The notes beneath the pieces were generated by a model that did no database searches, was not told the origin of the DNA, and saw only the letters and a list, made by a program, of their open reading frames with translations. Position numbers and translations under genes: made by a program. A DNA stretch of 64,000 nucleotides from an uncultured Thermoanaerobaculia bacterium (GTDB lineage: Bacteria > Acidobacteriota > Thermoanaerobaculia > Thermoanaerobaculales > Sulfomarinibacteraceae), in contig CAZSTH010000006.1 of NCBI GenBank assembly GCA_964609835.1, positions 5,379-69,378 on the forward strand. Reading direction: 5' to 3'. Below are positions 28,704-48,326 of the stretch, piece by piece (position 1 is the first letter of the stretch; every line of letters starts with the position of its first letter).

Positions 28704-29867
28704 ATGGACCATATCCTCCGCATCGCCGGCGTCCTCCTGTGCCTGCCCTGGCTTGTCGATGCCGTTTTCCGGCTGCTCCTCGCTCGCGCCGCAGCCACAG
28801 CCCCGGAGGTCGTCCGGCCGAGCCCAACCACATCGCCGAGATGGCTGGTGCTGATTCCGTCTCGGGCCGAGGGACGGGCGGTTCTCGACACGCTGCAGAG
28901 CATCGTGTCGGCCTCGCACGCCGATTCCGTGGTCACCGTCGTGCTGGTCGACGGCAGCGACCCCGAGACCGAGAGCCTGGCCGGGCCCCTGGCAACCCAC
29001 GTGTTTGTCAAGGACCCCCCTGGGCCGACCAAAGGCGTCGCACTGCGCTGGTTTGTCGAGCATCATTCGGAGATCCTCGAGGCGACCGATGCGTTGCTCA
29101 TCCTCGACGTCGGCTCCCGGATCGGCGCGGACTTCTTCGATCATGTCGGGTGGTGCGACGACAGCCAGGCCGTGCAGACCCGATTGCACGGCGTCGGAGG
29201 AGGTGTCGGCCGCACCGCCGGCCTCTCCGAACGGATGGCCCAGGAGTGGCAGGATCGCGGCCGCCAGGCACTCGGTTGGACCGTCCACCTGCGCGGCACC
29301 GGCATGGCACTGGCACCGGACCTCTTTCAGAGCATCGCCCCACGTCTGTGGACCTCCGTCGAGGACACGGAAGCGACTCTGCTGCTCGCGGCGGACGGAG
29401 TCGCGGTAGAGCTCGCCCCTGCCGGGGCGACTGTCGAGGACATCAAACCGAGCAGAGTGAACGATGCCGCCCGTCAGCGGTCCCGTTGGCTGCTCGGAAA
29501 GCTGTCGCTGCTCGCCCACCAGCCCCGCACTTTGGCACGGCTGTGCCTCCGCAGTCCCGCCGAGGGGCTCGCGTTCATCTGTGAGCTATTGAGCCGACCT
29601 TACTCATTAACCTTTGCCGCGCGCGCCGTGATGGCAACGGCCTTTCTCGCCGACGGACTCGTCGCGGGCGGCGGTCCGGCAGGAATCGCCATTGGCACAG
29701 TGCTGGCGGGCAGCCTGGGCTCCGATGTGATGCTCCTCCGCCGCGCCACCGATGCAGGGTGGCGGACCCTCTCCGTTGCGGCGTTGCAGATGACCGCTGC
29801 CTGGCTGCGTGCCATCGTCCTGCTGCCGTGGGCCCTCCTCGGGTGGGCGCGCGCGCGCAGACGATAA
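28704..29867 (+). CDS. Membrane-embedded processive-type family-2 glycosyltransferase.
   Basis: The matching motifs are WLVLIPSRAEG, VVLVDGSDPET, LILDVGSR, SVEDTEAT and QRSRW (a QxxRW motif). TM helices flank the catalytic region. Confidence 0.7.
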   Translation: MDHILRIAGVLLCLPWLVDAVFRLLLARAAATAPEVVRPSPTTSPRWLVLIPSRAEGRAVLDTLQSIVSASHADSVVTVVLVDGSDPETESLAGPLATHVFVKDPPGPTKGVALRWFVEHHSEILEATDALLILDVGSRIGADFFDHVGWCDDSQAVQTRLHGVGGGVGRTAGLSERMAQEWQDRGRQALGWTVHLRGTGMALAPDLFQSIAPRLWTSVEDTEATLLLAADGVAVELAPAGATVEDIKPSRVNDAARQRSRWLLGKLSLLAHQPRTLARLCLRSPAEGLAFICELLSRPYSLTFAARAVMATAFLADGLVAGGGPAGIAIGTVLAGSLGSDVMLLRRATDAGWRTLSVAALQMTAAWLRAIVLLPWALLGWARARRR

Positions 29868-30946: not shown

Positions 30947-31336
30947 TCCTCGCCTGAACGCCCTCACAGACTTCAGCGGGCGGCACCTCCCGCCCTTCAT
31001 CGCGCGGTCGATGTCGTTATCGGTCATCAGTCGCCGCCCTTCTTGACACCTGTCGGTCGAGTAGTCCATTCTCTTCATATGATCCACATCCCGGCGAGCC
31101 CCGATCGGAGAGCACGGTTCGGCGCGTTCTCCCCGATCTAGGTGTGTCGGTCGGTCACCCCGGCCCACCGCTCGGAGCCCTGGACCGGAGAGAGGAGGTC
31201 AGTTCCGTTGCAGGTGGTCGCTGGGGGGCGCGCACCCCCCGGTGCCCGTTCGCCGGCTTTTCCGGGGCTTGTTATTTCGATCCATGAGCGGTCGCGTGGC
31301 CTGTGCACCGCGACTGGGAAGAAGGAGGAGAGGACA

Positions 31337-34300
31337 ATGAGAAACACTGGACACTGGTGGGCGGGCGCCACCCTTGTGGTGGGAACCCTCTTGGTGCTGC
31401 CGTGCGTGTCGGCCGCCGGCGACGCACCACAGCCGAACGTCAACGCCGCGGTGAAGCGCGGGTCGTCTCCGGCGCTCCGCGATCTACCCGCCTTCGTCCC
31501 GGACGCCACGGCGCCCGAGGAGGTCAGGGAGATCAACCCGCGCAACGCGAGACTCCCGGCGGCCCTCCTCGAGGCCGACGAGCCCGAGGGCGAGCTCGAC
31601 CCGGCTGTGCAGAGCATGCACTTTGCCGACAATATGCCCGCCCCTGTGGTGAACTTCGAGGGTATCGGCAATGTCAATGGTGTGCTGCCGCCGGACACCA
31701 CCGGCGATGTCGGCCCCGACCACTACGTTCAGTGGGTGAATCTATCGTTCGCCGTGTTCGACAAGACGGGCGCAGTGCTCGCAGGCCCCTTCAACGGCAA
31801 CGTTTTGTGGACGGGTTTCGGCGGCACGTGCGAGACCAGCAACGACGGTGATCCCATCGTCCTCTACGACCACATTTCGGATCGCTGGGTGATGAGTCAG
31901 TTCACCGGGGATAATCACCAGTGCATCGCCGTGTCCAAGTCCGGCGACCCGACCGGCGAGTGGTGGCTTTACGACTTCCTGGCCGACGCCAACTCGGGCT
32001 ACTTCAACGACTATCCGAAATTCGGCGTGTGGCCCGACGGCTACTACTTCAGCGCGAACATGTTCGGAGCCTCCTTTCAGGGTGCCATGGCGGCGGTCTT
32101 CGAGCGCGACGCCATGCTCAACGGCGATCCAGCGCAGATGATCTGGTTCTTCACACCGGACCTCGCGGACTCGCCGTCGTTCAGCATTCTCCCGGCCGAT
32201 CTCGACGGGCTCAACCTGCCGCCGGCGGAAGCGCCCAACCCGTTCATCATGTCGGTGGACGACGCGTGGGGCTACGACTTCCCTTACGACACCGACGCCC
32301 TCGTGGTGATGGAGTTCGCGGTAGACTGGGACACCCCCGGCAACTCCACATTCGGACCCACCGAGGTCATCGATCTCACCGCTGCCGGTCTCGGCTTCGA
32401 CAGCAACATGTGCGGCTACAGCCGCAACTGCATTCCACAGCCCGATACGGCCCAGGGCGTGGACGCGTTGTCGAGCCGCGCCATGTACCGGCTCCAGTAC
32501 CGCAACTTCGGCACCCACCATTCCCTGGTGGCCTCGCAGACGGTCGACGAAAACGGCGCTGACCACGCAGGCGTCCGCTGGTACGAGCTGCGCGACGAGG
32601 GCATGGGCTGGGGCGTCTTGCAAGGCAGCACCTTCGCTCCCGACGACGCGCACCGCTGGATGGGCGACGCCGCAATGGATGCCTCGGGTAACATCGCGGT
32701 CGGCTACAGCGTGTCGAGTTCGACGGTATATCCCAGCATCCGCTGGGCCGGCCGGCTGGCCAGCGATCCGGTCAATTCCCTCGCACAGGGGGAGTCGGAG
32801 GTCTACACCGGCGGCGGTTCGCAGCAAAACACATCCGCCCGTTGGGGCGACTACTCGACCATGGCGGTCGACCCAGTGGACGACTGCACCTTCTGGTACA
32901 CCCAGCAGTACATAGAGAGCACGGGCAACGCCCCGTGGCAGACCCGCGTCGCCTCGTTCAAGTTCGACTCGTGCACCACGGGACCGGCAGGCACCGTAGA
33001 GGGCACGGTCGTCAACTCCGCCACCATGAACCCGCTCGAGGGCGCCCTGGTGGAGGTCGGTGGGTTCTCCACCGTGACCGACACTATGGGCTTCTACTCG
33101 ATCACGGTCCCCGAGGACACCTACGACGTCACCGCCTCGAAGTTTGGCTTCACCGCCCTGACGGCCACCGACATCGAGGTGTTGGACGGGCTCACCGTGA
33201 CCCAGGACTTCGAGCTCACACCGGTCGGCCCCGCCGGGCTCGACGGCTACGTGACCGGCGAGGGCTTCAGCTGGCCGCTGTACGCGATGGTCGAGATCTC
33301 GAGCGCCGGCGAGACCGTCGCCGAGCTCTACACCGACCCGCAAAACGGCTACTTCGAGGTCGAGCTGCCCATGAGCACGCCCTACGATCTCGTCGTGACA
33401 TCTCTGATCGAGAGCTACCTGCCCGCGACGCGCAGCATCGTGCTCGACATGGGCGGCCAGACCGAGAGCTTCGTGCTCGAGGATGACGGCACCGGCCCGT
33501 GGAACAACTGCCGCTGGATCGACGGCATCGAGGAGGACTTCGATGGCGGCTCCTTCCCGCCCACCGGTTGGACCACCATCAACAACGGTGGCGACTGCGT
33601 GTGGTCGGACACCGCCACGGTCGGCCGATCGAATCTGACGCCGGGTTCCGGGGTCGCCGCAACGGCGGACTCCGACCGCTGCGGGATCGGGACCACCATG
33701 GACACCGACCTGGTGTCGCCGGTGATGGACCTCTCCGGAGCGACCGAGGTGTCACTGGAGTTTGCATACTCCTACAACGACATCGGCAGCGCCGACTTCG
33801 CCGCCGCGTCGGTCAGTGCGGACGGCGGGGCCAGCTGGACCAACATCGTGACCTGGACCTCGGACGTGTCGGGAACTCTGACCTCCGACGTCTCAGGCCT
33901 GCTCGCGGGGTCGGCCAACGCCGTGGTGCGCTTCACCTACTTCGCACCGAGCTGGGACTGGTATTACCAGGTGGACAACGTGGTCGTCACCAGTGACGGC
34001 GGTGACGCCTCCTACGAGTGCACGCAGCTGTTGGGCTCGCTCGTCGAAGGCTTCGTGACCGATGCCAACTCGGGCGACGGGCTGATCGGCGCCGAGGTCA
34101 GCAACGACATCGGCGGATCGACCACCACCGTGGCCACCCCCGATGACCTGATGCTGCCCGACGGCTTCTACACCCTCTTCACGCCGCTGCCGCTCGGTGA
34201 TGGGCCGTCCACAAGGACCTTCACCGCCACAGCGAACGGGTACGGAGCGGGCGAGGTCGCCGTCAACCTGACGCCGAACACAGTCAATGCGCTCGATTTC

Positions 34301-36034
34301 GAGCTCAAGGCGGGTTGGCTCGAGCTAACGCCGGACCTCCTCTCAGCGCGGCTCTACGCAGGCGAGACCGGCGACCAGAGCCTGGAGGTCGTCAACCACG
34401 GCGGGATCGACGCTGACGTCATGCTGATGTCGGTGCCGGTGAAGGTGAGCTGGGACTACAGCGCACCCGAGTTCGACCTCGGAAACCTGCCCGGGAACAC
34501 CGATACGCTGTCGATGGGCCGGGCACCGTCGGCCGGAAGCCCGGAAGCAGTGAACTGGAATACCGACCTCGTCCTCAACGGGGCAGAGGCCTTCGGCATG
34601 GACATCTTCCCCGGCCAAACGCTCGTCAATTGGCCCGATGTCACGGCGCCGGATACCTGGAACATCATCTCCGGCGGCATGGAGTCGTTCTACGCGGGTG
34701 GGGACTTCCTGCTCGGGGACTTCAGCACGCTCTACGTCATTGGCTACTCGACCAACAACTTCGCCACAGTCGATACGGCAACCGGTGCGGCCACCGTCAT
34801 CGCGGTCGCCAACCCGGGCGGTGGCGAGTCGTGGAGCGGAATGACGGCAGCGGTGTACGGCACGCTGTACGCGGCCAGTGCGGTCTGCGGCGTCAACTCC
34901 ACCCTCCACACCATCGATCCGACGACCGGTGCGGTCAGCACCATCGGATCGATCACCAACGGCACCTGCATCATCGACATCGCCATCAATGCCGAGGGCG
35001 AGCTCTTCGGCATCGACTTGGTCACAGACACGCTGCTTCAGATCGATCCCGGCACCGGTGCCGGGACCGTGATCGGATCCCTGGGCGTCGACTGCAACTT
35101 CGCACAGGGCATGGACTTCGACGAGGTCTCGGGAACCCTCTACTGGGCGGCCTACACCCTCCAGGGCGAGCTCCGGGTCATCGACACCTCGACCGGTGCG
35201 AGCTCGCTCGTCGGGGCCTTTCCGGGCGGCGCCGAGGTGGACGCCTTCGCCATCGCGACCTCAGCGGGCGGCGGCGGTCTGCCGTGGTTGGAGCTCACCC
35301 CGACCGACGGCACGTCGCCGGCCAACGGCGATCTGCCGATCAACGCCGAGTTCATCGCCGACGGGGCCGATCACTACGGCCTCTACCAGGCGCGCATCAT
35401 GGTCGGCCACGACACGCCCTACGACGTCAACGAGACCTGGGTGTGCTTCACCAAGGCCTTCAACGACGTCAACGAGGCCTTTTGGGGCAACGAGTACATA
35501 CACTCGGTGGCGGGCGCCCGCATCACGGGCGGCTGCGGCCTCGGCAACTTCTGCTCCGGCGACCTCATGCTGCGGCACGTCATGGCGCGCTGGCTGCTCA
35601 AGCTGGTGCACGGACCGGACTACTCGCCGCCTCCGTGTCAGGGCGTTTTCGAGGACGTGGTCTGCGAGTCGACACCGAACGCGGACTGGATCGAGCAGCT
35701 CTACGCCGAGGGCATCACAACCGGTTGTTCGGCCGATCCTCTGCTTTTCTGCCCCTACGACGGGGTGACCCGTTCGCAGATGGCGGTCTTCATCCTGCGC
35801 GCAATCGAGGGTCCCGATTACGTACCACCTGCGTGCACGGGCGTCTTCGGCGATGTCAACTGCCCGAACTACTGGGCCGCCGACTGGATCGAGGAACTCT
35901 ATGCTCGCGGCATTACCACAGGGTGCTCGGCCGATCCGCTGCTCTTCTGCCCCGCGGATTCGACCAACCGTGCGCAGATGTCCGCCTTCGTGCAGCGTGC
36001 ATGGGAGCTTCCCATGTGCGCGGACGAGGACTGA
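31337..36034 (+). CDS. 1,565-aa secreted multidomain surface protein ending in three Cys-bridged SLH-like repeats.
   Basis: GAAGGAGGAG lies upstream and the signal peptide is MRNTGHWWAGATLVVGTLLVLPCVSAAG. An N-terminal conserved unknown domain contains DPIVLYDHISDRWVMSQF. It is followed by CarboxypepD_reg-like repeats and a choice-of-anchor-J/MAM-like segment (FDGGSFPPTGWTTINNGGDCVWS). A propeller-like repeat region comes next. The SLH-like repeats occupy 35459..36031. Confidence 0.85.
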   Translation: MRNTGHWWAGATLVVGTLLVLPCVSAAGDAPQPNVNAAVKRGSSPALRDLPAFVPDATAPEEVREINPRNARLPAALLEADEPEGELDPAVQSMHFADNMPAPVVNFEGIGNVNGVLPPDTTGDVGPDHYVQWVNLSFAVFDKTGAVLAGPFNGNVLWTGFGGTCETSNDGDPIVLYDHISDRWVMSQFTGDNHQCIAVSKSGDPTGEWWLYDFLADANSGYFNDYPKFGVWPDGYYFSANMFGASFQGAMAAVFERDAMLNGDPAQMIWFFTPDLADSPSFSILPADLDGLNLPPAEAPNPFIMSVDDAWGYDFPYDTDALVVMEFAVDWDTPGNSTFGPTEVIDLTAAGLGFDSNMCGYSRNCIPQPDTAQGVDALSSRAMYRLQYRNFGTHHSLVASQTVDENGADHAGVRWYELRDEGMGWGVLQGSTFAPDDAHRWMGDAAMDASGNIAVGYSVSSSTVYPSIRWAGRLASDPVNSLAQGESEVYTGGGSQQNTSARWGDYSTMAVDPVDDCTFWYTQQYIESTGNAPWQTRVASFKFDSCTTGPAGTVEGTVVNSATMNPLEGALVEVGGFSTVTDTMGFYSITVPEDTYDVTASKFGFTALTATDIEVLDGLTVTQDFELTPVGPAGLDGYVTGEGFSWPLYAMVEISSAGETVAELYTDPQNGYFEVELPMSTPYDLVVTSLIESYLPATRSIVLDMGGQTESFVLEDDGTGPWNNCRWIDGIEEDFDGGSFPPTGWTTINNGGDCVWSDTATVGRSNLTPGSGVAATADSDRCGIGTTMDTDLVSPVMDLSGATEVSLEFAYSYNDIGSADFAAASVSADGGASWTNIVTWTSDVSGTLTSDVSGLLAGSANAVVRFTYFAPSWDWYYQVDNVVVTSDGGDASYECTQLLGSLVEGFVTDANSGDGLIGAEVSNDIGGSTTTVATPDDLMLPDGFYTLFTPLPLGDGPSTRTFTATANGYGAGEVAVNLTPNTVNALDFELKAGWLELTPDLLSARLYAGETGDQSLEVVNHGGIDADVMLMSVPVKVSWDYSAPEFDLGNLPGNTDTLSMGRAPSAGSPEAVNWNTDLVLNGAEAFGMDIFPGQTLVNWPDVTAPDTWNIISGGMESFYAGGDFLLGDFSTLYVIGYSTNNFATVDTATGAATVIAVANPGGGESWSGMTAAVYGTLYAASAVCGVNSTLHTIDPTTGAVSTIGSITNGTCIIDIAINAEGELFGIDLVTDTLLQIDPGTGAGTVIGSLGVDCNFAQGMDFDEVSGTLYWAAYTLQGELRVIDTSTGASSLVGAFPGGAEVDAFAIATSAGGGGLPWLELTPTDGTSPANGDLPINAEFIADGADHYGLYQARIMVGHDTPYDVNETWVCFTKAFNDVNEAFWGNEYIHSVAGARITGGCGLGNFCSGDLMLRHVMARWLLKLVHGPDYSPPPCQGVFEDVVCESTPNADWIEQLYAEGITTGCSADPLLFCPYDGVTRSQMAVFILRAIEGPDYVPPACTGVFGDVNCPNYWAADWIEELYARGITTGCSADPLLFCPADSTNRAQMSAFVQRAWELPMCADED

Positions 36035-36272: not shown

Positions 36273-38108
36273 ATGCGGAGTAGCTCGCGATGTTGGTTGA
36301 CGGGAGTGACGATCATGGTCGCGCTGATTTCGAACGCGGCAACGGTTCCGGCCGCCGGCCCCGAGGAGGCCGACCAGGCCGGTCTCGAGCTCGCACCCGA
36401 TGTCCTCGAGTCGCGCCTCGGGCGCGGCGAAACCGAGGGACAGGCGCTCGAGATCCTGAACTTCGGCGACACCGAGGCAACGGCCCTTCTGTTCCTACTT
36501 CCCTACTCGCCGTGGGTACCCGGCGTACCGATGGACCACATCGACATCCCGCAGCTGACCGCCGAGCAGTCGGCAGCACTGACCTCCCGACTCGTCGGAG
36601 CAACCGGACGTCAACCTGCGGCGACAAGTGCCACCGGCGAGGTCGTCTCGTCGTGGGCCCACGGTTTGACCATCGGTTGGGGCCTCGGCGTCAACCAGCT
36701 GACCGACACTATTTGGGTCGGCGACCCCGGGGCCGCAGGCGGCACCGATCTCGACTATGAGTTCACCCGCGACGGCGTGGCCACCGGCGCCACCATCGAC
36801 ACCTCGCCGTGGGCAGGGGTCTTCGCGGCCGACATGGCCTTCGATCCGATCTCCGGCATGCTGTGGCAGCTCGACGTCGGCGGCATCAACTGCATCCACG
36901 AGCTCGACCCGGTGACCGCATCGGCCACCGGCGAGACGATCTGCTGGAGCGCGCCGTCGTCGGAGCGGGGTCTGGCCTACGATCCGCTGTCGCAGACGTT
37001 CTTCGTTGGCGGTTGGAACACCCTCGCGATCACCCGCTTCGACCGGGCGGGCAACGTGCTTCAGGTCGTCGACGTCGGTCTCGCGATCTCGGGCCTGGCC
37101 TACAACCCGCAGACCGAGCATCTGTTCGTGATCGAGAACTCGATCGAAGACGCGGTCACGGTCCTCGATGTCGGCGACGACTACAGCGAGATCGGGTCCT
37201 TCACCGTGCCCGGGTTTGGGAACTATGCCGGCGCCGGCCTCGGCATCTCCTGCGACGGCCACCTGTGGGCGGCGAACCAGGCGGACATGAAGGTCTACGA
37301 GATTGATTCGGGCGAGACGGAGGCCTGCCTCGTCGCGTCCCTGCCGTGGATCGAGCTGACGCCAGGCTCCGCCGTGGTCCCTCCCGATCCAGGCGAGCAG
37401 GGGCAGGTCACCATCGACGTTCAGTTCATCGCCGACGGCCTCACCCACTTCGGGCTGGTCCAGGCCACAGTGCTTCTCACCGACGGTGACGGAGACGTCG
37501 CAGACCAGGGCCGTGTCTGCATGACGCGGGCGTTCGACGACATCGCGGAGAGCTTCTGGGCCGACGCCTCGATCCACGCCACGGCCGGCGCACGGATCAC
37601 CACCGGTTGCGGACTTGGCGATTTCTGCCCGAGCGACGTGATGCTGCGACATGTGATGGCCAACTGGCTGGTCAAGCTGACGCACGGGCCGGATTTCTCT
37701 CCGCCTCCCTGCACCGAGACCTTCGGCGACGTGGTCTGCGAGCTGACGCCGAACTCGGACTACGTCGAGCAGCTCTACGACGATGGCATCACGACCGGTT
37801 GCTCGGCCGACCCGTTGCTCTTCTGTCCGTATGACGGAGTGACCCGAGCGCAGATGGCGGTCTTCCTGCTGCGGGCCATCGAGGGACCGGACTACTTTCC
37901 GCCACCCTGCACCGGCATCTTCGGCGACGTCAACTGCCCGAGCTTCTGGGCCGCTGATTGGATCGAGGAGCTCTACAGCCGGGGCATTACAACCGGCTGC
38001 TCGGCTGACCCTCTGCTTTACTGCCCGTTCGACCTCACGAACCGGGCGCAGATGTCCGCGTTCGTCCAACGGGCGTGGGAGCTGCCCATGTGTGAGGCCG
38101 ACGACTGA
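36273..38108 (+). CDS. 611-aa secreted beta-propeller-like protein ending in three Cys-bridged SLH-like repeats. It is a paralog of the C-terminal part of 31337..36034.
   Basis: AGGAAGGAG lies upstream and the N-terminus MRSSSRCWLTGVTIMVALISNAATVPAAG looks like a signal peptide. NHL/YncE-like repeats include LAYDPLSQTFFVGGW and LAYNPQTEHLFVIEN. The SLH-like repeats occupy 37533..38105. Confidence 0.85.
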   Translation: MRSSSRCWLTGVTIMVALISNAATVPAAGPEEADQAGLELAPDVLESRLGRGETEGQALEILNFGDTEATALLFLLPYSPWVPGVPMDHIDIPQLTAEQSAALTSRLVGATGRQPAATSATGEVVSSWAHGLTIGWGLGVNQLTDTIWVGDPGAAGGTDLDYEFTRDGVATGATIDTSPWAGVFAADMAFDPISGMLWQLDVGGINCIHELDPVTASATGETICWSAPSSERGLAYDPLSQTFFVGGWNTLAITRFDRAGNVLQVVDVGLAISGLAYNPQTEHLFVIENSIEDAVTVLDVGDDYSEIGSFTVPGFGNYAGAGLGISCDGHLWAANQADMKVYEIDSGETEACLVASLPWIELTPGSAVVPPDPGEQGQVTIDVQFIADGLTHFGLVQATVLLTDGDGDVADQGRVCMTRAFDDIAESFWADASIHATAGARITTGCGLGDFCPSDVMLRHVMANWLVKLTHGPDFSPPPCTETFGDVVCELTPNSDYVEQLYDDGITTGCSADPLLFCPYDGVTRAQMAVFLLRAIEGPDYFPPPCTGIFGDVNCPSFWAADWIEELYSRGITTGCSADPLLYCPFDLTNRAQMSAFVQRAWELPMCEADD

Positions 38109-38246: not shown

Positions 38247-41200
38247 ATGAACGCACCACATGTCTTCATCGCCGGCTACTACGGCTTTCGCAACCTCGGC
38301 GACGAGGCGGTACTGTCGGCCATGCTCGACCAGCTTCGGGAGCGGCTCGAGGCCCCGACCTTCATCGTCGCCTCAGGGGACCCCGACCACACCACCCGGC
38401 AGCACGGCGTCGGCGCGGTCCCGTGGCGTGATCTCGTCGCGACCGGCAAAGCCGTTGCAGATTCGAATCTGGTCATTATCGGCGGCGGGGGGCTGTTCCA
38501 CGATTATTGGAGGGCCGACCCGACCTCGGTACTGTCCAGCCATCACTACGGCGTCTCCTGGTGCGCATCGACGGCGCTGCTCGCCCGATTGCACGACAAG
38601 CCCCTCATGATCTTCGGCGTCGGCGTCGGACCGCTTGAAACGCACGAGGGCGCCACACTGACACGGCAGGTGTTCGAGCTCGCACAAGATGCCACGGTGC
38701 GGGATTCCGAGTCGCACGATGAGCTCGAGCGACTCGGTGTCCCCGAATCTCTTGTCACCGTGAGCGCCGATCCGGTGTTCGCGAGCCCCGCTCCGGATCC
38801 GCATGTCCGCGACTGGGCCGAGCGACGCCTGACCGGCGTCACCGGCCGGCCGCTGCTCGGCGTGTGTCCCCGGGGCTGGAGCGTCGACGTCGCCCAGTCC
38901 GATTGGCTCAAGACTGTCGCTGAAGGTGTCACCAGATTCGCAAACGCCCACGAGGCGGGCGTGGTCGTGATTCCGTTCAGCGACCTCGACGAAGATGCCG
39001 CCGACGACACCGTCGTCGCCCACGCGCTAGCAGCGACGCTCTCCACCGACGGTCCGGTGCTCGAGATCGGAGTGCCCGAGGACGCTCCGAACGCACGCGC
39101 GCTGCTCGGTCGCTGCGATCTCGTGCTCGGAATGCGGTTGCACTCCGTCATCTTCGCGGCCCTTGAGGGAACGCCGTTGGTCGGCCTGGCCTACGATCCG
39201 AAGGTCCGCCGGACCCTATCGGCCCTCGGTGCCCGCTCCTCGTGTCTGGAGCTTCACGATTTGGATCCAGACCGCCTGCTTTCGAGCCTCGAGAGCGCCT
39301 TCGCGAGCCGAGAGGCGGCCGGGCCCGAACTCGCGCAGGCCGCCGCAAGGCTCGCGGCACGGGCCGCCGTCTCGGCCGACAGGGCGGTCTCGCTTCTCGG
39401 CCGCCGCGAGGTGGGGACCCAAGGCCTCCCGCCCCTGCGTGAGGATTTTTTTCGATCGGCCGTGACCACGGTCATCGAACGTGCGGAGGCGAAATCGTCG
39501 ACGGCCGAAAGACTGGAGGTGCAGCGCGACTGGATCGAAGAGCAGCGCGAGGAGCTCGCCGCTAGTAACCAGGACCTCCAAAGGCAGCTCGAGAGCCAAC
39601 GCCTCGAGATCGATGCCTTGAACGCCAGGCTTCACCGGTTGGTGTCCACCCGGGCGTTCCGCTTCGCCGCGGGGTGGTGGCGTCTCGCGTCGGGCCTCCG
39701 CCGGGCGCTCCAGAGGTCATCGAATTTCGGCGTGTTACCGCTGAGAAGCTGGTACGCCTACGCGTTCGATCGCTTCAAGAGGGCGCGGGGCGCCATCGCC
39801 GGCGATGCGGCTTCAGGCATTCATTGCCCGGGGGACGAGGGTCTGGTGTCGGTGGTGCTTCCCGTGTACAACGGCGCCGACCTCGTCCATGAATCGCTCG
39901 ACAGCCTGCTCTCGCAGACCTACTCGAACTTCGAAATCATCGCCATCAACGATGGATCGACCGACCGAACGGGCGAGGTACTCGACGATTACGCCAAGCG
40001 CGACCCGCGCGTGCGGGTCATCCACCAGCAGAACCGTAAGCTGCCCCGCACCCTGTCGCGCGGCTTCCGAATGGCGCGCGGCCAATTCCTCACCTGGACC
40101 AGCGCCGACAACCGCTGCAAACCCGAGTTCATGCAATCAATGGTGGACTGTCTCGAGCGGCATCCGGATTGGGATATGGTCTACGCCAACGTGGACATCA
40201 TCGGCGACGAAGGCGGTCCGCTCCGCGACTCGCCCTGGTTCGCCGGCTACCAGGTGCCTCCCGGCAGCGAGCACGTCCACCTGCCCCACGACCCGGGTGA
40301 GCTCAATACCTGGGCGAACAACTACGTCTGTGCCGCCTTCCTGTACCGCAGCCGCGTGGCGTGGTTGCTCGGCGACTACAGTCGCTACCGATTCACCACC
40401 GAGGACTACGACTACTGGATGCGAATCAACGAGATGCTGACGCTACGTCACGCCGATTTCGACGAACCGGTCTACGACTACCGCTTTCATGACGAGTCGC
40501 TGACCGCCCGCGACGAAGAGCTCGGCATCACCCGCGGTCGGGACCGGTTGATGGTCTTCGACGATTTCCGCCGCGACGCCCTGCTGACCTCGGCCCTCTG
40601 GCACATCGAACACCGCTCTTCTGCCACCGCGGGACTCGCCGAGGCGCTGCGGCGGCACGTCCGCCGAGCGGGCCACCTGATGTTCGATCCCGCGAAAGAT
40701 GCCGTGGAGCCATGGCCGGATTTCTATCTCACGTCGATCATGGTGCGCGTGGCTACCCCGGACGAGGCCGGTGAGCCGCCACCGAAGCTCCCCCAGAACT
40801 GCCTCAAGGTGCTCGCGCTCCAGACTGCCGAGGCGACCGTGTGTGCCCCGCGGGAGCCTGACGCTGCCTGGGACCTCTGCGTGGCGGTTGGTCCCACCGG
40901 CGGCTCGGAACCGCTGGAGCCGTACCGTCACTGGTTGGCCGCCGACGGTGCCGAATCGTTGTTCCTGGCCGCCGAGGTGCGCGCCCGGAGCGATAGCTTC
41001 GCGGCGGCCGAGGCCGCTGCCGAAGGAGCCGGTCCGAAAGCGACCCTGCGTGCATCGATCGTCATCTGCACCCACCAGGTGATCTCTCCCTTTCGGGACT
41101 CGGTGCTGTCCGCGGTGCGTCAGCACGCCGGTCCCGAGTCGTACGAGGTCTTGGTGGTGAACAACCGGCCCGGAGATCGGGACCTCGAGCTCGAGATCGA

Positions 41201-42020
41201 ATCCGTGAAAACCATCGCGGACAGTGAGCGCCCGGGGCTCATTCGCGTCGTCCGCTGCCCGGTGCCGGGCCTCTCGCACGCCCGTAACGCCGCCATCGCC
41301 GTCGCACGGGGAGAGATCGTGATCTGTCTCGATGACGACGCGATCGCTCGTCCCTCGCTGGTCGACGAGGCAGTGCGGCTGTTCGCCGAGCGGCCAGGGA
41401 TCGGCATCATCGGCGGCCATATCCGCCTCCAACCGCCCGAACCGAAGCCCGAGGTGTTGAATCCCGGGTGGGAGCGCTACTGGAGCCAGCTCCTTACCGG
41501 CGCCACCGCCTGCCACGAGGTCGAGGAATGGTGGGAGTTTCCGTGGGGCGCCTGCTGGTGCGCCCGCCGCGACCTTCTGCTGGCCATGGGCGGATTCCGC
41601 AGCCGTTACGGCCGCGTCGGCAGCGATTACGCCGGTAGCGAGGAGGTCATCGCCGCCGCGCTCGCCCAGCGCCTCGGCGCCGGCATTGCCGTTGCTCCGG
41701 AGCTCGAGGTGCAGCACCGCGTCGAGCGCAGCCGCTACACCTGGCGCCACGTCCGCCGGACGATCATCGCCGGCACCCTCGTCAACTACCAAGCCCAGCG
41801 CGACCTCTACTTGCCGATGTGGGAGGGCATCGGCTCGACCGCACGGAAACTCCTCAGCCCGTCGATCGACCGCACCGTGGGCGCCAACAGCGTCGCGGCA
41901 CGGGCCCGCCATTGGCTGTACCGCAAGGAGGCGTGGCTGCGGCTCCTCCGCGTGCAGCTCGCCGATTGGAGGCGGCGACTGCGGAGGCCATCCCACGCTG
42001 TCCGCCATCGGCGCCGGTGA
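38247..42020 (+). CDS. Trifunctional 1,257-aa protein: CsaB-type polysaccharide pyruvyltransferase domain, then a coiled coil, then two GT2 domains.
   Basis: The N-terminal domain has FIAGYYGFRNLGDEAVLSAML, VIIGGGGLFHDYW, FGVGVGPL, VRDSESHDELERLGV and SADPVF. The coiled coil is ERLEVQRDWIEEQREELAASNQDLQRQLESQRLEIDALNARLHRLV. The first GT2 domain has VSVVLPVYNGADLVHESLDSLLSQTYSNFEIIAINDGSTD. The second has YEVLVVNNRPGD and ICLDDDAIA. Confidence 0.8.
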   Translation: MNAPHVFIAGYYGFRNLGDEAVLSAMLDQLRERLEAPTFIVASGDPDHTTRQHGVGAVPWRDLVATGKAVADSNLVIIGGGGLFHDYWRADPTSVLSSHHYGVSWCASTALLARLHDKPLMIFGVGVGPLETHEGATLTRQVFELAQDATVRDSESHDELERLGVPESLVTVSADPVFASPAPDPHVRDWAERRLTGVTGRPLLGVCPRGWSVDVAQSDWLKTVAEGVTRFANAHEAGVVVIPFSDLDEDAADDTVVAHALAATLSTDGPVLEIGVPEDAPNARALLGRCDLVLGMRLHSVIFAALEGTPLVGLAYDPKVRRTLSALGARSSCLELHDLDPDRLLSSLESAFASREAAGPELAQAAARLAARAAVSADRAVSLLGRREVGTQGLPPLREDFFRSAVTTVIERAEAKSSTAERLEVQRDWIEEQREELAASNQDLQRQLESQRLEIDALNARLHRLVSTRAFRFAAGWWRLASGLRRALQRSSNFGVLPLRSWYAYAFDRFKRARGAIAGDAASGIHCPGDEGLVSVVLPVYNGADLVHESLDSLLSQTYSNFEIIAINDGSTDRTGEVLDDYAKRDPRVRVIHQQNRKLPRTLSRGFRMARGQFLTWTSADNRCKPEFMQSMVDCLERHPDWDMVYANVDIIGDEGGPLRDSPWFAGYQVPPGSEHVHLPHDPGELNTWANNYVCAAFLYRSRVAWLLGDYSRYRFTTEDYDYWMRINEMLTLRHADFDEPVYDYRFHDESLTARDEELGITRGRDRLMVFDDFRRDALLTSALWHIEHRSSATAGLAEALRRHVRRAGHLMFDPAKDAVEPWPDFYLTSIMVRVATPDEAGEPPPKLPQNCLKVLALQTAEATVCAPREPDAAWDLCVAVGPTGGSEPLEPYRHWLAADGAESLFLAAEVRARSDSFAAAEAAAEGAGPKATLRASIVICTHQVISPFRDSVLSAVRQHAGPESYEVLVVNNRPGDRDLELEIESVKTIADSERPGLIRVVRCPVPGLSHARNAAIAVARGEIVICLDDDAIARPSLVDEAVRLFAERPGIGIIGGHIRLQPPEPKPEVLNPGWERYWSQLLTGATACHEVEEWWEFPWGACWCARRDLLLAMGGFRSRYGRVGSDYAGSEEVIAAALAQRLGAGIAVAPELEVQHRVERSRYTWRHVRRTIIAGTLVNYQAQRDLYLPMWEGIGSTARKLLSPSIDRTVGANSVAARARHWLYRKEAWLRLLRVQLADWRRRLRRPSHAVRHRRR

Positions 42021-42025: not shown

Positions 42026-42760
42026 ATGGAGATGGACAATAACAACAGCCGCCCGGTCAATCAGAGCCCCGATTGGCAGGACGAGATCAGCTTCTGGGAG
42101 GAACAGCTGTCCGGCGACGGACAGTACTCCGATCTCTACCTCGACAGATTCGACCTCAGCAAACCGGGTTGGGCCTACCGCGACGATCTCGAAGACCTGA
42201 TCCGCGCGCTCGGCGCCGAGAAAGCGCGCAGCGGCAGGGTGCTGGATGTGGGCTCGGGGCCGGGTTCGGTGTTCTCGTACGGCTATTTCACCGGACGCTT
42301 CGACCTCGTCGCCGTGGACCCGCTGGTCACCGAGTATCTCGCGCTGATGAAAAAGCACGGCCGGCCCCAGATCTGCCCCATGGTGGATTGCGCCGGTGAG
42401 CATCTCAGCCGCCACCTGCCGCGCGGGCACTTCGACTTCGTGTGGTCCCACAACGCCATCGACCACAGCCAGCAGCCGGACCGTGTGCTCGCGAACATGG
42501 TCGACGTCACGCGGCCCGGCGGGGTCCTCGTGGTCCAGTGCTGGCAGGACGAGGCGACCCACGCCGCGTGGACCGGGCTGCACGCCTTCGACTTTCGTAA
42601 GCGGTCCGACGGCCATCTCTGCTACGCCACCAGCGACGGCGCGGTTCACCCGTTCCACGACCCCCGGATCGACGTCATCGATCCCTTGGTGGCCCCACTG
42701 AAAAACGTGCCGGAGCGCGACGGCAAGACCTGGATCGCGGCATGGTACCGCCGTCGGTGA
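42026..42760 (+). CDS. Class I SAM-dependent methyltransferase.
   Basis: The motifs RVLDVGSGPGS and TRPGGVLVV are present. It starts 6 nt after the upstream stop. Confidence 0.75.
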   Translation: MEMDNNNSRPVNQSPDWQDEISFWEEQLSGDGQYSDLYLDRFDLSKPGWAYRDDLEDLIRALGAEKARSGRVLDVGSGPGSVFSYGYFTGRFDLVAVDPLVTEYLALMKKHGRPQICPMVDCAGEHLSRHLPRGHFDFVWSHNAIDHSQQPDRVLANMVDVTRPGGVLVVQCWQDEATHAAWTGLHAFDFRKRSDGHLCYATSDGAVHPFHDPRIDVIDPLVAPLKNVPERDGKTWIAAWYRRR

Positions 42761-45700: not shown

Positions 45701-45816
45701 ATATCGGGCCGTTCTTCCTCCCGAACGCCGCATCCCGCCAGACCTATCGCGACAGTCGACGCGCTCAGGGTGCTGATGAACTGGCGGCGTGAGATGTCGG
45801 TTCGATACCGGCTCAC
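42790..45816 (-). CDS. 1,008-aa Tat-exported lipoprotein with a sulfatase/alkaline-phosphatase-superfamily fold, split by a large insertion.
   Basis: The N-terminus is SRRQFISTLSASTVAIGLAGCG (twin-arginine motif plus lipobox). The fold motifs are IVVLVLDSLRAKSL and TSDHGEALGEHGLMCDHGKLL. The nucleophile segment reads ATWTRPAVTSLLSG instead of C/S-x-P-x-R. The sulfatase-type C-terminal motif FMLFDLESDPHQRTNLV appears only near residue 950. Confidence 0.75.
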   Translation of the reverse strand: MSRYRTDISRRQFISTLSASTVAIGLAGCGVREEERPDIVVLVLDSLRAKSLPFHGHTRNTAPFLAGLAARSLVFSRCYAAATWTRPAVTSLLSGLPPLAHQGWRFNKAFPENRSTLARPLADGGYRTGFFTANPAIGESYGLEGQFDHVSYEAARDHDLGSRVTDECLDWASGADANRPAFVYIHFWPPHGPYLPPDEILDRPDFHAAPVVDHLPHSSRFGARLSLGDSVIGRIPWYQAKASLQTDLADYLRRYEANIAYADSLADDFFRRWQALPRRRRTIFIVTSDHGEALGEHGLMCDHGKLLIDEILHVPLLVHDTVRRRPSVVNEVVSHLDIAPTVLVMAGLSGDFGMLNSPLVDAAPPNRIVVSQEGASRGESGWALTSGRWRLVYNGGSRFGGALLMATEYQSVVEGPTTFVPTAPGRSSIRWPVVLAPDVTLESLALARAVLDGGAAVKLAGTLRGPAGEGRLALRASIGEENVELGEFSPGDFEGTVPPLPLPPDGGRLRIEGVWRNGHGDSRPWATLLSLSCIAPVRLTDALQLAALDATPTAVVRGQTVRLTPVWRVLGNVDRGVGVLWRLVDRAGRVAVQEVTSFFRPLPDPEAKPRPLIDPWRLEERTFEKRQLLADDCLWLTVPPDLEPGTYDLEVGVVDYPLYFNQGRLSIAKTPTTCASLEISDSQRDRLVACATRDLGPEDLPAAGVDRSTVDVRDALELLATRHPGQGQLDFFLAKTESGAEGRRSLLESCLAKVPSHLEANRELAILGDEESAERVARLTPEHELAVSFNDVVGLVGYDLRRHSDQLFLTLYWQAMISSRYLLSAAAFAEAETVTGGSARCSLWWFLGGARRPSFSWLAGEVVKDTVLLPLEPGSTRLRIKLNLEERWRRFYSNNRGSFNVTSGNKDERHIVVADLGVHEVSEISTAGADFLTGKRNDVSQFMLFDLESDPHQRTNLVAERPDVLASLRHELDQLIAASPAWSDDLSQDETELSEETRKQLEALGYVE

Positions 45817-46661
45817 CAGTCATGCCCCTCTTCATACCCGAGGGTCACCAGGAGATCTCCGCAACGTTCTTTGACGAATGCCTGCGCGTCGGGCGTCCGG
45901 ATATGGTTCTTCCAGTCGCCGACGATGCCCTTGCGAAAGAGCGGTTTGAACTCGCGCGCGCGCCGCAGGTGATCGGCGAATGGAATCGGCTCGTCCACGT
46001 AGTGCGAGCTCACCATCGCGTCGTCAGGAATCTGCAGTCCGCTGAACCCGATCACCCGCTCGAGCACGCCGACGAAGTCTTCTTTCATCCCCTCGTAGGT
46101 GATCTTGAGGAAATCGACCCCGTCCTCCTCGAGCGAGCGCTCCGCCGCGAGAACTTTCTCGCAGCTCGTGATCGAGGCCTCGAAGACCTTGCTCTGCTTA
46201 AGGTATTCGAAGGTACCGACGTCGTCGTGCTCCTCAACCTTGTGCAGCTGCCGCTGGAGGTAGAGCTCGTTCGAGATGTATACGTCTCTCGGATCACGGT
46301 AGAGGATCACGGTCTTGGTGTCGCGGAAAAGGTGGCGGAATTCAAGGAAGGAGTGGATGTTGGACGGCGCCTTGTCTACCAGCAACCCTACGTGGGCGTG
46401 GCGCTCACGCTCGATCTCATACAGCCGGACGATCTTTTCTTCCGGCGTCAGACCTTCGTCCTGGCGGACGGCGAGGTACTGCTTGTCCTGTGACGTCTCG
46501 GCGTTCCACTGACGGTCGAGCGAGAAGTTCACGAAGTAGAGAAAGTCAAACTCGCGGGGAAACATCATGTGCGGCCGTACGGTGAGACCGTGAGCCAGCC
46601 AGCTGCTGCCGCACTTGGCCGGGTTGAGCACCAGCAGAAAATCCTTGAATACCCTGCTCAC
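45813..46661 (-). CDS. Sulfotransferase.
   Basis: LVLNPAKCGSSWLAHGL resembles the 5'-PSB loop and ILYRDPRDVYIS resembles the 3'-PB motif. The GTG start has GGAGGGGG upstream. It overlaps both neighbours by 4 nt. Confidence 0.75.
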   Translation of the reverse strand: MSRVFKDFLLVLNPAKCGSSWLAHGLTVRPHMMFPREFDFLYFVNFSLDRQWNAETSQDKQYLAVRQDEGLTPEEKIVRLYEIERERHAHVGLLVDKAPSNIHSFLEFRHLFRDTKTVILYRDPRDVYISNELYLQRQLHKVEEHDDVGTFEYLKQSKVFEASITSCEKVLAAERSLEEDGVDFLKITYEGMKEDFVGVLERVIGFSGLQIPDDAMVSSHYVDEPIPFADHLRRAREFKPLFRKGIVGDWKNHIRTPDAQAFVKERCGDLLVTLGYEEGHDW

Positions 46662-47461
46662 GCCCCCTCCCCTCCGCTCGCCGACGCTTTGGCAGATTGA
46701 CCGCCCGCAACCCCGGCCAACGGCTCCTGTGTGTACAGGCTGACCACCTCGTCCACCGGTCCGAGCGCCGTCAACCGGCCCGTGCTCAGCAGAGCCGCGC
46801 GCGTGCACAGATTGCGCACCGCCTGCAGATTGTGGGAGACCAGGAGCACGGTTGCTCCACCGTCGCGGAATTCGTTGATCCGCTCGGTGCACTTCGCCTT
46901 GAACTCGGTGTCGCCCACCGACATGATCTCGTCCATCAGCAGAACGTCCGGTCGCACGTCGGTGGCGATCGCGAAGCCGAGCCGGGCGCGCATGCCCGTC
47001 GAGTACGTCCGCAGCGGTGCGTCGATGAAATCCGCGAGGCCCGCGAAGTTGATAATTCGATCGAAACGCGCCGCCATGTCCGCGCTCGAAAAGCCAAGGG
47101 TCGCGCCGACCAGAAAGACGTTCTCCCGCCCGCTGAGCTCGTCGTTGAACCCCGCGCCGAGGCCGAGCAGCGGCGCCACCAGGCCGCGAACCACGACCCG
47201 ACCGCCGGTCGGTCGAAGCACCCGCGCCACCACCTTGAGGAGCGTCGTCTTGCCGGCACCGTTGCGGCCGATGAGGCCGAAGACCTCGCCCGCCCGGACC
47301 TCGAACGAGATGTCGCGCAGCGCCCAGAACTCACCCACCGCCAGCTGTCGCTTGAGCCTCCGGATCGCGTACTCCTTGAACGAGGTCACCTTCTCGTGCG
47401 AGACCCGGTAGCACAGCGAGAGTTCCTGGACGGCGATCGCGGGTCGAGGCGCGGTGCTCAC
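46658..47461 (-). CDS. wzt: Polysaccharide-export ABC transporter ATP-binding protein (Wzt/TagH/KpsT type), with no C-terminal carbohydrate-binding extension.
   Basis: FWALRDISFEVRAGEVFGLIGRNGAGKTTLLK, YSTGMRARLGFAIA and VLLMDE are present. At 267 aa it contains only the ATPase core. Confidence 0.85.
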   Translation of the reverse strand: MSTAPRPAIAVQELSLCYRVSHEKVTSFKEYAIRRLKRQLAVGEFWALRDISFEVRAGEVFGLIGRNGAGKTTLLKVVARVLRPTGGRVVVRGLVAPLLGLGAGFNDELSGRENVFLVGATLGFSSADMAARFDRIINFAGLADFIDAPLRTYSTGMRARLGFAIATDVRPDVLLMDEIMSVGDTEFKAKCTERINEFRDGGATVLLVSHNLQAVRNLCTRAALLSTGRLTALGPVDEVVSLYTQEPLAGVAGGQSAKASASGGEGA

Positions 47462-47462
47462 G

Positions 47463-48326
47463 TCACGCCCTCAACGCGAACTCGTGCTGGTTCTTGACGA
47501 AGATCCACCATCCTGCGACCACCGCGATCAGCGCGCCGGCGGAGGACACCGCGAGCGATTCGGCCGACGGCAGGACGCCGGCGTAGATCGGGTCCCGCCA
47601 GCACGCGAGGAGGTGGTAGAGGGGGTTCGCCCGCACCAACCACACGAAACGCTCCGGGAGGATATCCTCCGGGTACATCACCGGCGTCAGATAGAACAGC
47701 GCCCGCACCAGCACCCCCCACATCTCGACCACATCTGTGTAGCGGACGGCAACGGTGGACATGATGAGGCCGACGCCGAGGGAAAAGCACGCCAGCAGCA
47801 CCATGGCAACCGGCAGGAACAGGAGCGACCAGGACAGCCGCTGGCCGAGCACCAGCATGATCAGAAGCACCGGCGCCAGCGACATGGTGAGGTTGACGAG
47901 TGCAGTGCCCACCGACGACAGGGGGTAGGTGGCCGCTGGGACGTAAACCTTCTTCAACAGTGAACTCCCCCACACCAGCGACCGCATGCTCTGGGTAGTG
48001 CTCTCCTGGAAGAAGCCGAAGAACACGAGTCCGGCGAGCACGTAGACCGGGTAGTTCGGCACCGAGAAGCGGAAGATCGCCGAGAACGCGATGCTCATCA
48101 CGATCATCGTCAGCAGAGGGCTCAGCAACGACCAGCCGATTCCCAGCACCGATCGTTTGTAGCGGCTCTTGACGTTGGTGGCGATCAGGAGGCGCAGGAA
48201 GTCTTTGTAGCGCACCACCTCCAGCAGCCCGCTCCACAGCGGTCGCCGCCCCGCCGTCGACGAGTCGTAGACGAGCCCGCCCGCGGGCACGCCCTCGGCC
48301 TGGGCTGTGGTCGACCGCTCGTTCAT
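47463..48326 (-). CDS. wzm: ABC-2 type polysaccharide-export permease (Wzm/TagG type).
   Basis: DFLRLLIATNVKSRYKRSVLGIGWSLLSPLLTMIVMSIAF is the family motif, followed by six hydrophobic segments. The ATG at 48326 has GGAGGG upstream and an ATGA overlap with the upstream gene. Confidence 0.85.
   Translation of the reverse strand: MNERSTTAQAEGVPAGGLVYDSSTAGRRPLWSGLLEVVRYKDFLRLLIATNVKSRYKRSVLGIGWSLLSPLLTMIVMSIAFSAIFRFSVPNYPVYVLAGLVFFGFFQESTTQSMRSLVWGSSLLKKVYVPAATYPLSSVGTALVNLTMSLAPVLLIMLVLGQRLSWSLLFLPVAMVLLACFSLGVGLIMSTVAVRYTDVVEMWGVLVRALFYLTPVMYPEDILPERFVWLVRANPLYHLLACWRDPIYAGVLPSAESLAVSSAGALIAVVAGWWIFVKNQHEFALRA

Follow-up and report, generated by a model that had tools for sequence, protein, structure and literature searches.

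Domain Architecture of the Fusion Protein

The window analyzed here is a 64,000-nucleotide stretch of contig CAZSTH010000006.1 (assembly GCA_964609835.1), from an uncultured Thermoanaerobaculia bacterium of the Acidobacteriota. Among genes for proteins with S-layer homology (SLH)-like modules, it encodes a single 1257-amino acid (aa) protein, referred to here as the fusion, which consists of a CsaB-type pyruvyltransferase, a coiled coil, a cationic amphipathic helix, a family 2 glycosyltransferase (GT2) domain, a small α/β domain, and a second GT2 domain, in this order from the N-terminus. These domains and their order are real and far above chance, and the fusion is, on sequence grounds, very probably a trifunctional enzyme that unites a pyruvyltransferase, a coiled coil, and a two-GT2 polymerase. 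By analogy to known systems, we give about even chances to the overall interpretation that it is a single-chain polymerase like WbbB, equipped with a pyruvyl terminator and a ruler, and that it makes the ligand for SLH proteins.

The fusion gene was taken from a listing of open reading frames (ORFs) and its translation; it starts with ATG, with GAGGGG found 10 nt upstream, and its GC content by codon position (0.70/0.50/0.82) is as in the other real genes of the window (coordinates of all features are given in Table 1). The N-terminus co-aligns with those of 23 full-length orthologues, sharing the start “MxxxxIxIAGYYGF,” and the full-length orthologues (n = 24) are 33–62% identical to the fusion. 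The codon GC signature and the orthologues rule out that the ORF is a shadow frame. No transmembrane segments are predicted in the whole protein.

The original prediction, made from the DNA alone, had assigned the N-terminus to the CsaB-type pyruvyltransferases, and domain searches agree with this. Pfam PF04230 (PS_pyruv_trans) matches at aa 16–318 over its entire length (profile 1–280 of 280) with an E-value of 1.8e-32 and 113.8 bits, against a gathering cut-off of 25.3. The NCBIfam model for CsaB, TIGR03609, matches aa 6–330 (profile positions 2–292 of 301) with 201.7 bits, a near miss of its curated equivalog cut-off of 213.1; the next-best pyruvyltransferase model in NCBIfam, WcaK, reaches only 38 bits. 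The AlphaFold2 (AF2) model of residues 1–530, based on a 24-sequence alignment, has a mean predicted local distance difference test score (pLDDT) of 88 and comprises a domain at residues 1–385 and helices at 396–466 and 469–489. The pLDDT of the CsaB domain is >90, and Foldseek with the head model finds only generic GT-B-like folds, as expected for such enzymes. In CsaB of Paenibacillus alvei, mutagenesis has pointed to Y14, F16, R148, R207, R306, H308, and K328 as important (PMC10435577). Their counterparts in the fusion are Y12, F14, R152, R209, R297, H299, and K319, the last five of which are invariant in the 24 orthologues, while Y12 and F14 belong to a GYYGF consensus; the CsaB motifs quoted in the original prediction are also all found in the translation. 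By every sequence test other than the narrowly missed equivalog cut-off, the head belongs to the CsaB family.

The coiled coil was also foreseen, and is modeled as an uninterrupted helix (residues 396–466) with a pLDDT of about 80–85, which would measure about 10.5 nm if straight. One heptad register spans the whole helix, with hydrophobic residues at 14 of the 20 a/d positions, and a profile of the region matches known coiled coils, Beclin-1 and the myosin rod among them, albeit weakly. Mere low-complexity sequence is ruled out by the continuous register and the confident helix. The helix after the coil (residues 469–489) has a hydrophobic moment of 0.63 and a net charge of +5, and its “SR.W.L...W..R” motif is kept in the orthologues as well as in stand-alone CsaB-coil proteins, making it a candidate membrane-interface anchor. 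The basic, Trp-rich helices at the C-terminus, with a net charge of +7 across aa 1216–1245, are a possible second membrane-interface element in the model.

The C-terminal part carries the two predicted GT2 domains, with Pfam Glycos_transf_2 (PF00535; E = 1.3e-49) matching in two stretches at aa 535–673 and about 935–1180. The first GT2 domain matches chondroitin synthase, GalT1, and SpsA by sequence and contains the conserved motifs DGS(T)D, SADN, and EDYDYW. The second is matched by PF13506 at 1016–1167 and by EpsD/AglG/HpsE-like NCBIfam models at 935–1183; in its LDDDA motif, D1030 and D1031 are invariant and D1029 is nearly so in the orthologue alignment. The small domain between them is detected by a locally built hidden Markov model (HMM; referred to as “mid”) that also matches relatives lacking CsaB, and is kept within the GT2-mid-GT2 cassette. 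For residues 480–1257, the AF2 model has a pLDDT of 86.8 and a predicted template modeling score (pTM) of 0.89, and the order of modifier, coil, and glycosyltransferases (GTs) in the original prediction stands. Heparosan synthase PmHS2 and chondroitin polymerase K4CP are the best PDB structure matches of this GT half, with E-values of 2.3e-19 and 1.1e-18, respectively, and K4CP is also the top profile match by sequence. Both are alternating dual-GT2 co-polymerases. The GT half resembles these enzymes, and the Asp-rich motifs of both GT2 domains are intact.

A Widespread Family with Exchangeable GT Cassettes

The fusion does not stand alone in its architecture: our searches returned hundreds of clusters. 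A word-indexed search with the fusion found 281 relatives at E ≤ 1e-10, and the best 120 of these all have PF04230 and GT domains; the named sources are metagenome-assembled genomes (MAGs) labeled Anaerolineae, Phototrophicales, Bryobacteraceae, Thermoanaerobaculia, and Acidobacteriota. With only the head (aa 1–471) as query, an exhaustive search returned 12,514 cluster representatives at E ≤ 1e-3, of which 830 reach E ≤ 1e-30. The stand-alone CsaB enzymes of Bacillus anthracis and P. alvei are about 370–400 aa long. Among the best 150 head matches, only seven have the size of a stand-alone CsaB and 109 are longer than 700 aa, and source databases label family members simply as “CsaB.” A second homology search, seeded with a Bryobacteraceae-type member, returned only MAG or metagenome proteins.

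We mapped domains in the 120 best relatives using locally built HMMs and a heptad scan, which is crude (it gives 74 aa for the coil of the fusion compared to the 71-aa AF2 helix). In about 97 of the 120, a coil of 35–198 aa directly follows CsaB, and the cassettes behind it include GT2-mid-GT2, GT4-GT2, GT2-GT4, and longer forms that end in a methyltransferase. The segment from CsaB to the first GT2 domain ranges from 178 to 271 aa among the 24 orthologues, with the variation located in the coil and the flanks conserved, and some orthologue coils contain literal heptad tandem repeats, e.g., AQRDAVS in P0003. There are also proteins of about 540–600 aa that consist of CsaB, coil, and amphipathic motif without any GT (P0135, P0150, P0219, P0223, and P0249), although some such matches may be truncations at contig ends. 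In Anaerolineae and Phototrophicales forms of about 1760–1795 aa (L006 8717-14104, P0007-P0015), a GT1/GT4 domain precedes CsaB, giving the order GT4-CsaB-coil-GT2-mid-GT2. Judging from these sequences, “CsaB – coiled coil – GT cassette” is a large, widespread, and uncharacterized enzyme family.

In Clostridia, Lachnospiraceae, and other groups, there are GT2-mid-GT2 relatives that lack CsaB and are encoded beside Wzm/Wzt. The cassette relatives in Firmicutes (L009 12726-16208, L010 9563-13150, and L012 13341-16673) have a short coil and the amphipathic motif and no head domain, which suggests that their coil may recruit a separate partner.

Genes Encoding Cys-Pair SLH Modules

As the original prediction had recognized, the fusion gene lies among genes for SLH-like proteins: five genes near it encode proteins that each end in three such modules. 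Pfam SLH matches only three of the five proteins, and weakly; the 611-aa protein encoded directly upstream of the fusion has no Pfam SLH match at E < 0.01. The modules share the consensus FADVPTSYWAFKWIEALYAAGITAGCGTGPLLYCPDDSVTRAQMAVFLLRA, with a conserved Cys pair (GIT.GC....YCP..TRAQMA.FL) in three copies per protein, and keep the equivalents of Trp13, Gly29 of GIIxG, and Arg43 of TRAE/TRAQ. In canonical SLH trimers, the Trp13, GIIxG Gly, and TRAE Arg residues contact 4,6-pyruvyl-ManNAc (PMC6081394).

To compare gene neighborhoods, we fetched 103 loci and ran locally built HMMs against their ORFs; the counts out of 26 CsaB loci and 24 CsaB-less loci use loci of at least 12 kb and a range of 10 kb. 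SLH-type genes occur in 14 of the 26 CsaB loci and in none of the 24 cassette loci without CsaB (Fisher p = 1.2e-5), a contrast that is confounded by taxonomy and by phylogenetic non-independence of the loci, and that was obtained with an SLH HMM seeded from the Cys variant. The co-occurrence of the fusion with the Cys-SLH module, proposed as a check in the original prediction, is thereby found for relatives of the fusion. Almost all SLH modules in the scanned loci are of the same Cys-pair variant as in the window, which recurs in L005, L018, L022, L023, L049, L091, and others, lying beside CsaB-coil fusions in many unrelated metagenomic loci. In L022, about ten ORFs have SLH matches, and at least six Pfam-confirmed SLH genes lie directly upstream of its fusion gene. 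Wzm and Wzt genes together are present in 11/26 CsaB loci and 13/24 CsaB-less loci.

Based on these sequence data, it is moderately likely that the product of the fusion is the SLH ligand of the neighboring surface proteins. SLH trimers are reported to bind terminal pyruvyl-ManNAc even in a poly-pyruvylated polymer (PMC8942822), and in the secondary cell wall polymer (SCWP) of Bacillus anthracis pyruvate is on the terminal repeat only (PMC6801904). Alternatively, the fusion may synthesize an unrelated glycan, i.e., an O-antigen, capsule, or exopolysaccharide (EPS), and the SLH neighbors would be a coincidence of a cell-envelope gene island. We consider this very improbable: the head scores 201.7 bits to CsaB vs. 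≤38 bits to capsule/EPS pyruvyltransferases, SLH genes are confined to the CsaB loci in the comparison above, in the lineage of the window SLH genes have been inserted within the operon between the GT2_387 gene and the fusion gene, and the Cys-variant modules retain the pyruvate-contact residues. Nevertheless, the closest genome is labeled Acidobacteriota, a diderm phylum, LpxC is encoded near one homologue (L020), no SLH gene lies within 10 kb in 12 of the 26 CsaB loci, and sulfotransferase, sulfatase-like, and Wzx-type genes are present in the locus, all of which would fit a glycan of that kind.

A Wzt Without Carbohydrate-Binding Module

The Wzm/Wzt genes reported near the fusion gene are indeed present (46658-48563, minus strand), and also lie beside its orthologues in L018 and L021. 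The fusion is therefore, in our estimation from gene content, likely to act in an ABC-transporter pathway. The original prediction had further stated that this Wzt lacks a carbohydrate-binding extension, as in WbbB-type systems. The first part holds, as no C-terminal Wzt_C domain is found by Pfam in the 267-aa window Wzt; the second does not, as the Wzt of the O12/WbbB system has a carbohydrate-binding module (CBM) (PMC11231755).

Among loci with a complete, strongly matching Wzt, all 16 CsaB-linked Wzt proteins end within 28 residues of the nucleotide-binding domain, whereas 13 of 19 Wzt proteins of CsaB-less relatives have a C-terminal extension of 106–745 residues (L003, L004, L008, L012, L013, L014, L032, L039, L050, L057, L068, L069, and L073; Fisher p = 1.9e-5), and the extensions that were checked are Pfam Wzt_C in 5/5 cases. 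The presence of a CBM-less Wzt with CsaB and of a CBM-bearing Wzt without CsaB is a new and testable regularity that bears on cap-gated export. Every characterized terminated system, including O12/WbbB, has a Wzt CBM that reads the cap (PMC11231755), so the CBM-less Wzt here deviates from that prototype, and does so consistently.

The lack of the CBM in CsaB-linked Wzt would also be in line with a cap that does not regulate chain length, in which CsaB caps the chain as WbbZ does in Klebsiella O1, merely diversifying or functionalizing its end, and chain length depends on how the polymerase couples to a non-selective Wzm/Wzt rather than on the coil. The O1/O2 transporter, which has no CBM, exports both capped and uncapped chains, and WbbZ is dispensable for length control (PMC11231755). 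However, WbbZ is a free protein without a coil, while here a near-universal coil of variable length lies between CsaB and the GTs, and we regard a non-regulating cap as improbable.

Proposed Mechanism of Chain Termination

In the mechanism that we propose, the fusion would be a peripheral glycan assembly enzyme on the cytoplasmic face in an ABC-transporter-dependent pathway, with two cationic amphipathic elements tethering the GT2-mid-GT2 cassette to the membrane. The two GT2 sites would alternately lengthen an undecaprenyl-diphosphate-linked chain, most likely with a ManNAc-containing disaccharide repeat, while the coiled coil, probably oligomeric, would hold CsaB about 10 nm off the membrane. 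Once the chain is long enough, its non-reducing end would meet the CsaB site, and CsaB would add a 4,6-ketal pyruvate from phosphoenolpyruvate (PEP), whereupon elongation would stop. As its Wzt has no CBM, the adjacent Wzm/Wzt would then export the completed chain without recognizing the cap; outside the cell, the Cys-variant SLH trimers on the neighboring proteins would bind the terminal pyruvylated sugar.

We rate a terminator-and-ruler role of the fusion as about as likely as not. The capping step is supported by the conserved head-coil unit on swappable cassettes, by the variation of the coil in heptad units, and by the existence of both fused and stand-alone formats; moreover, the presence of the pyruvyltransferase WbbZ leads to PEP-dependent shortening of polymerase products in vitro (PMC10629545), and the binding of SLH trimers to the terminal sugar and the terminal-only pyruvylation in B. 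anthracis, both noted above, point the same way. A different role for the head would be that of a per-repeat modifier, where CsaB pyruvylates every ManNAc of the growing or lipid-linked chain, the fusion to GTs serves co-localization, and the coil is for oligomerization or scaffolding and does not measure length. This is how CsaB of P. alvei, the best-characterized one, works, pyruvylating each repeat at the stage of the lipid-linked disaccharide with no termination (PMC6030368, PMC6801904), and the missing cap-reading CBM in 16/16 CsaB-linked Wzt proteins is as expected if there is no cap. A rigid 10-nm spacer, extending to about 200 residues in relatives, would however be a poor design for stoichiometric modification, and the CsaB-coil unit stays constant while GT cassettes are swapped, its coil varies by heptads, and stand-alone CsaB-coil-anchor proteins exist; wherever such coils have been studied, they bear a terminator (PMC11231755). 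We therefore judge per-repeat modification to be unlikely, and return to the terminator-ruler as our preferred reading.

Besides the precedent of P. alvei, several observations weigh against that reading. The cap-reading CBM of all characterized terminator-ruler systems is missing from CsaB-linked Wzt. The coil of the fusion is short (71 aa) and was assessed with a crude heptad scan, and the head is not always CsaB alone, as GT4 precedes it in the Anaerolineae forms. Neither Wzm/Wzt nor SLH genes are within 10 kb in 9 of the 26 CsaB loci, and the SLH contrast carries the confounding described above. Whether a 4,6-ketal blocks elongation hinges on the sugar linkage. Finally, the methyltransferase and the sulfotransferase encoded in the locus may act as end-modifiers in place of CsaB or alongside it. 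That either of them is the real terminator is less likely, because neither has a coil, and the methyltransferases that are fused in relatives sit on the polymerase side of the coil.

A broader version of the terminator-ruler reading is possible, albeit doubtful. In this version, which would amount to a so far unrecognized and widespread route to the SLH anchor, the CsaB-coil head, mainly in Acidobacteriota and Chloroflexota-labeled sequences, would measure the polysaccharide that anchors SLH proteins and cap it with pyruvate on the cytoplasmic face, the cap would be read outside by the co-distributed Cys-pair SLH trimer rather than by the exporter, heptad changes in the coil would tune the distance of the surface proteins, and the Wzt CBM would have been consistently lost from the exporters of CsaB systems, or never been present in them.

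Comparison with Known Systems

WbbB of Klebsiella pneumoniae O12 and Raoultella terrigena is similarly organized, with an N-terminal end-modifier, a coil, and two C-terminal GT modules in one chain, and Wzm/Wzt in the locus. Despite this likeness, there is no sequence homology: the head of WbbB is a GT99 β-Kdo transferase, whereas that of the fusion is a PEP-dependent CsaB-type enzyme, and the polymerase of the fusion consists of GT2 and GT2 with an extra middle domain. Further, the O12 Wzt has a CBM that reads the Kdo cap (PMC11231755), unlike the Wzt of the window. In the WbdD/WbdA system of Escherichia coli O9a, where terminator-ruler and polymerase are separate proteins, the terminator is likewise distal on a coil, with an amphipathic membrane helix at the coil base, a format mirrored by the stand-alone CsaB-coil-helix relatives, and ORF6 of K. 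pneumoniae O7 also has two C-terminal GT2 modules. WbdD and O7 ORF6 differ from the fusion in using a methyl or phosphomethyl cap and in export that is coupled to a Wzt CBM, and the coil of the fusion, with its 71 residues, is far shorter than that of WbdD. According to these comparisons, the fusion shares architecture and pathway with WbbB and WbdD, but neither the enzyme families nor the Wzt CBM.

WbbZ of K. pneumoniae O1 is a PF04230-type enzyme that adds a terminal pyruvate to an ABC-transporter-dependent glycan whose transporter has no CBM; unlike the fusion, it is free and coil-less, has no part in controlling chain length, and belongs to the Pvg1p clade instead of the CsaB clade (PMC10629545, PMC11231755). 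CsaB of B. anthracis and P. alvei is closer in sequence, as the best-matching family is TIGR03609, the key residues of P. alvei CsaB are conserved, and SLH-type proteins are encoded nearby; these enzymes are stand-alone proteins, however, without coil or GT, and a Wzx/Wzy-dependent pathway has been proposed for each (PMC6801904).

The original prediction was not aware of a CsaB domain in a ruler setting, but the idea of a pyruvate terminator is not new. In PMC10629545, a pyruvate terminator with a ruler is predicted by bioinformatics, without validation, in Burkholderia vietnamiensis and Pseudomonas protegens. The idea there is the same, i.e., pyruvate termination with length regulation by a coiled coil, although it concerns proteobacterial O-antigen loci. 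In the literature we found no paper that joins Wzt, SCWP, pyruvylation, and SLH, and no description of CsaB fused to GTs, in a search that did not cover the survey behind the Burkholderia/Pseudomonas proposal. The fusion is thus less singular than originally held, yet of interest to specialists of both O-antigens and S-layers. If the reading is true, it would join the ruler-terminator logic of ABC-dependent O-antigen assembly with pyruvyl-dependent SLH anchoring, two subjects so far investigated apart, and would explain mechanistically why wall polymers such as that of B. anthracis are pyruvylated at the terminus only, which suffices for SLH binding. It would also provide a biochemical example of a pyruvate terminator, noted as still missing by the Whitfield group, and define a large uncharacterized enzyme family, given the 830 cluster representatives at the stricter threshold of the head search.

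Other Genes in the Window and Syntenic Loci

Table 1. Features of the fusion gene and of its neighborhood in the window (AF2, AlphaFold2 model; L003, L005, and L018, loci of relatives)
Feature	Position	Strand	Basis
Whole fusion gene, 1257 aa	38247..42020	+	ORF, codon GC, Pfam, NCBIfam, orthologues
CsaB-type ketal-pyruvyltransferase domain, aa 1-385, two Rossmann-like halves	38247..39401	+	PF04230, TIGR03609, AF2, Foldseek
Coiled-coil spacer, aa 396-466, 71-residue continuous helix	39432..39644	+	AF2, heptad scan, profile matches
Cationic amphipathic helix, aa 469-489, RAFRFAAGWWRLASGLRRALQ	39651..39713	+	AF2, hydrophobic moment, motif conservation
First GT2 (GT-A) domain, aa 530-780	39834..40586	+	PF00535 at 535-673, profile matches, AF2
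Small α/β middle domain, aa 784-925	40596..41021	+	AF2 secondary structure, “mid” HMM
Second GT2 (GT-A) domain, aa 934-1186	41046..41804	+	PF00535, PF13506, NCBIfam, PDB match
C-terminal basic, Trp-rich helices, aa 1195-1256	41829..42014	+	AF2, charge
UDP-GlcNAc 2-epimerase gene remnant	27052..27500	-	tblastn with intact L018 gene
GT2, 387 aa (GT2_387)	28704..29867	+	Pfam; directly upstream of fusion in L018
1630-aa secreted protein, C-terminal Cys-variant SLH modules	31142..36034	+	Pfam, local SLH HMM, synteny with L005
611-aa secreted protein, three Cys-variant SLH modules at the end, directly upstream of fusion	36273..38108	+	Module sequences, HMM
SAM-dependent methyltransferase, starts 5 nt past fusion stop	42026..42760	+	Pfam Methyltransf_11/23, L018 synteny
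Sulfotransferase	45813..46892	-	Pfam Sulfotransfer_1
Wzt-type ABC ATPase, 267 aa	46658..47461	-	Pfam ABC_tran only; 89% identical to 270-aa L018 Wzt
Wzm-type ABC-2 permease	47463..48563	-	Pfam ABC2_membrane; 88% identical in L018
Multidomain GT (GT4-like + GT2), 761 aa	48323..50608	-	Pfam; syntenic in L018, L005, L003
287-aa SLH-variant protein	52069..52932	+	Pfam SLH E 6.7e-08
S8 subtilase with C-terminal Cys-variant SLH modules	53027..55486	+	Pfam Peptidase_S8, SLH
400-aa protein, three Cys-variant SLH modules	55575..56777	-	Pfam SLH E 6.5e-12

The nearest species-representative genome (L005), a MAG labeled Ca. Sulfomarinibacteraceae (Acidobacteriota), is syntenic over the whole locus, including the SLH proteins. 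The locus of the 62% identical orthologue (L018) shares the core of the window locus in a more compact form, and consists of UDP-GlcNAc 2-epimerase, GT2, fusion, methyltransferase, transposase, sulfotransferase, Wzt, Wzm, GT4/GT2, Sel1-like, and SLH genes; it is relative to this arrangement that the gene for the 1630-aa SLH protein is inserted between the GT2_387 and fusion genes of the window. The glycan locus in the window also contains a Sel1-repeat protein, further GTs, and a Wzx-type gene.

UDP-GlcNAc 2-epimerase supplies UDP-ManNAc. Its gene is intact in L018, and at the same place in the window only a remnant is left, which by tblastn matches aa 1–55 and aa 273–364 of the L018 protein in different frames; another copy may exist elsewhere in the genome. 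The epimerase gene is present in 6/26 CsaB loci compared to 9/24 CsaB-less loci, and, not being enriched in the former, marks the GT cassette generally rather than the CsaB head.

The methyltransferase following the fusion is found at the same position in L018 with 70% identity, and in some family members a methyltransferase is fused C-terminal to the GTs. The true start of the sulfotransferase is probably near 46661, abutting Wzt, as judged from its 282-aa L018 orthologue, which has a 4-nt overlap with Wzt. The 761-aa GT4-like/GT2 protein is a candidate for adaptor or primer GTs. A 1008-aa protein with an N-terminal sulfatase domain is encoded between the methyltransferase and the sulfotransferase (42790-45816, minus strand); the corresponding gene in L018 (9158-9445) is reduced to a 96-residue fragment beside a DDE transposase, and a sulfatase gene adjoins the fusion gene in L023 too. 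Between GT2_387 and the 1630-aa SLH protein lies an ORF of 395 aa (29759-30946, plus strand) that Pfam does not match, whose C-terminus resembles a short coiled coil, and which is not part of the L018 arrangement.

At the left end of the window, a gene of more than 2099 codons (3-6299, minus strand) runs off the sequence and contains CarboxypepD_reg (six stretches), SdrD_B, and SpaA-like domains; a 1982-aa ORF on the plus strand (54..6002) was rejected as a shadow frame of this giant gene. Upstream of the glycan/SLH region, there are also a 1230-aa TPR-CHAT protein (6520-10212, minus strand) and, at 22849-24808 on the plus strand, genes for an extracytoplasmic function (ECF) sigma factor, a zf-HC2 anti-sigma factor, and a LiaF-like membrane protein.

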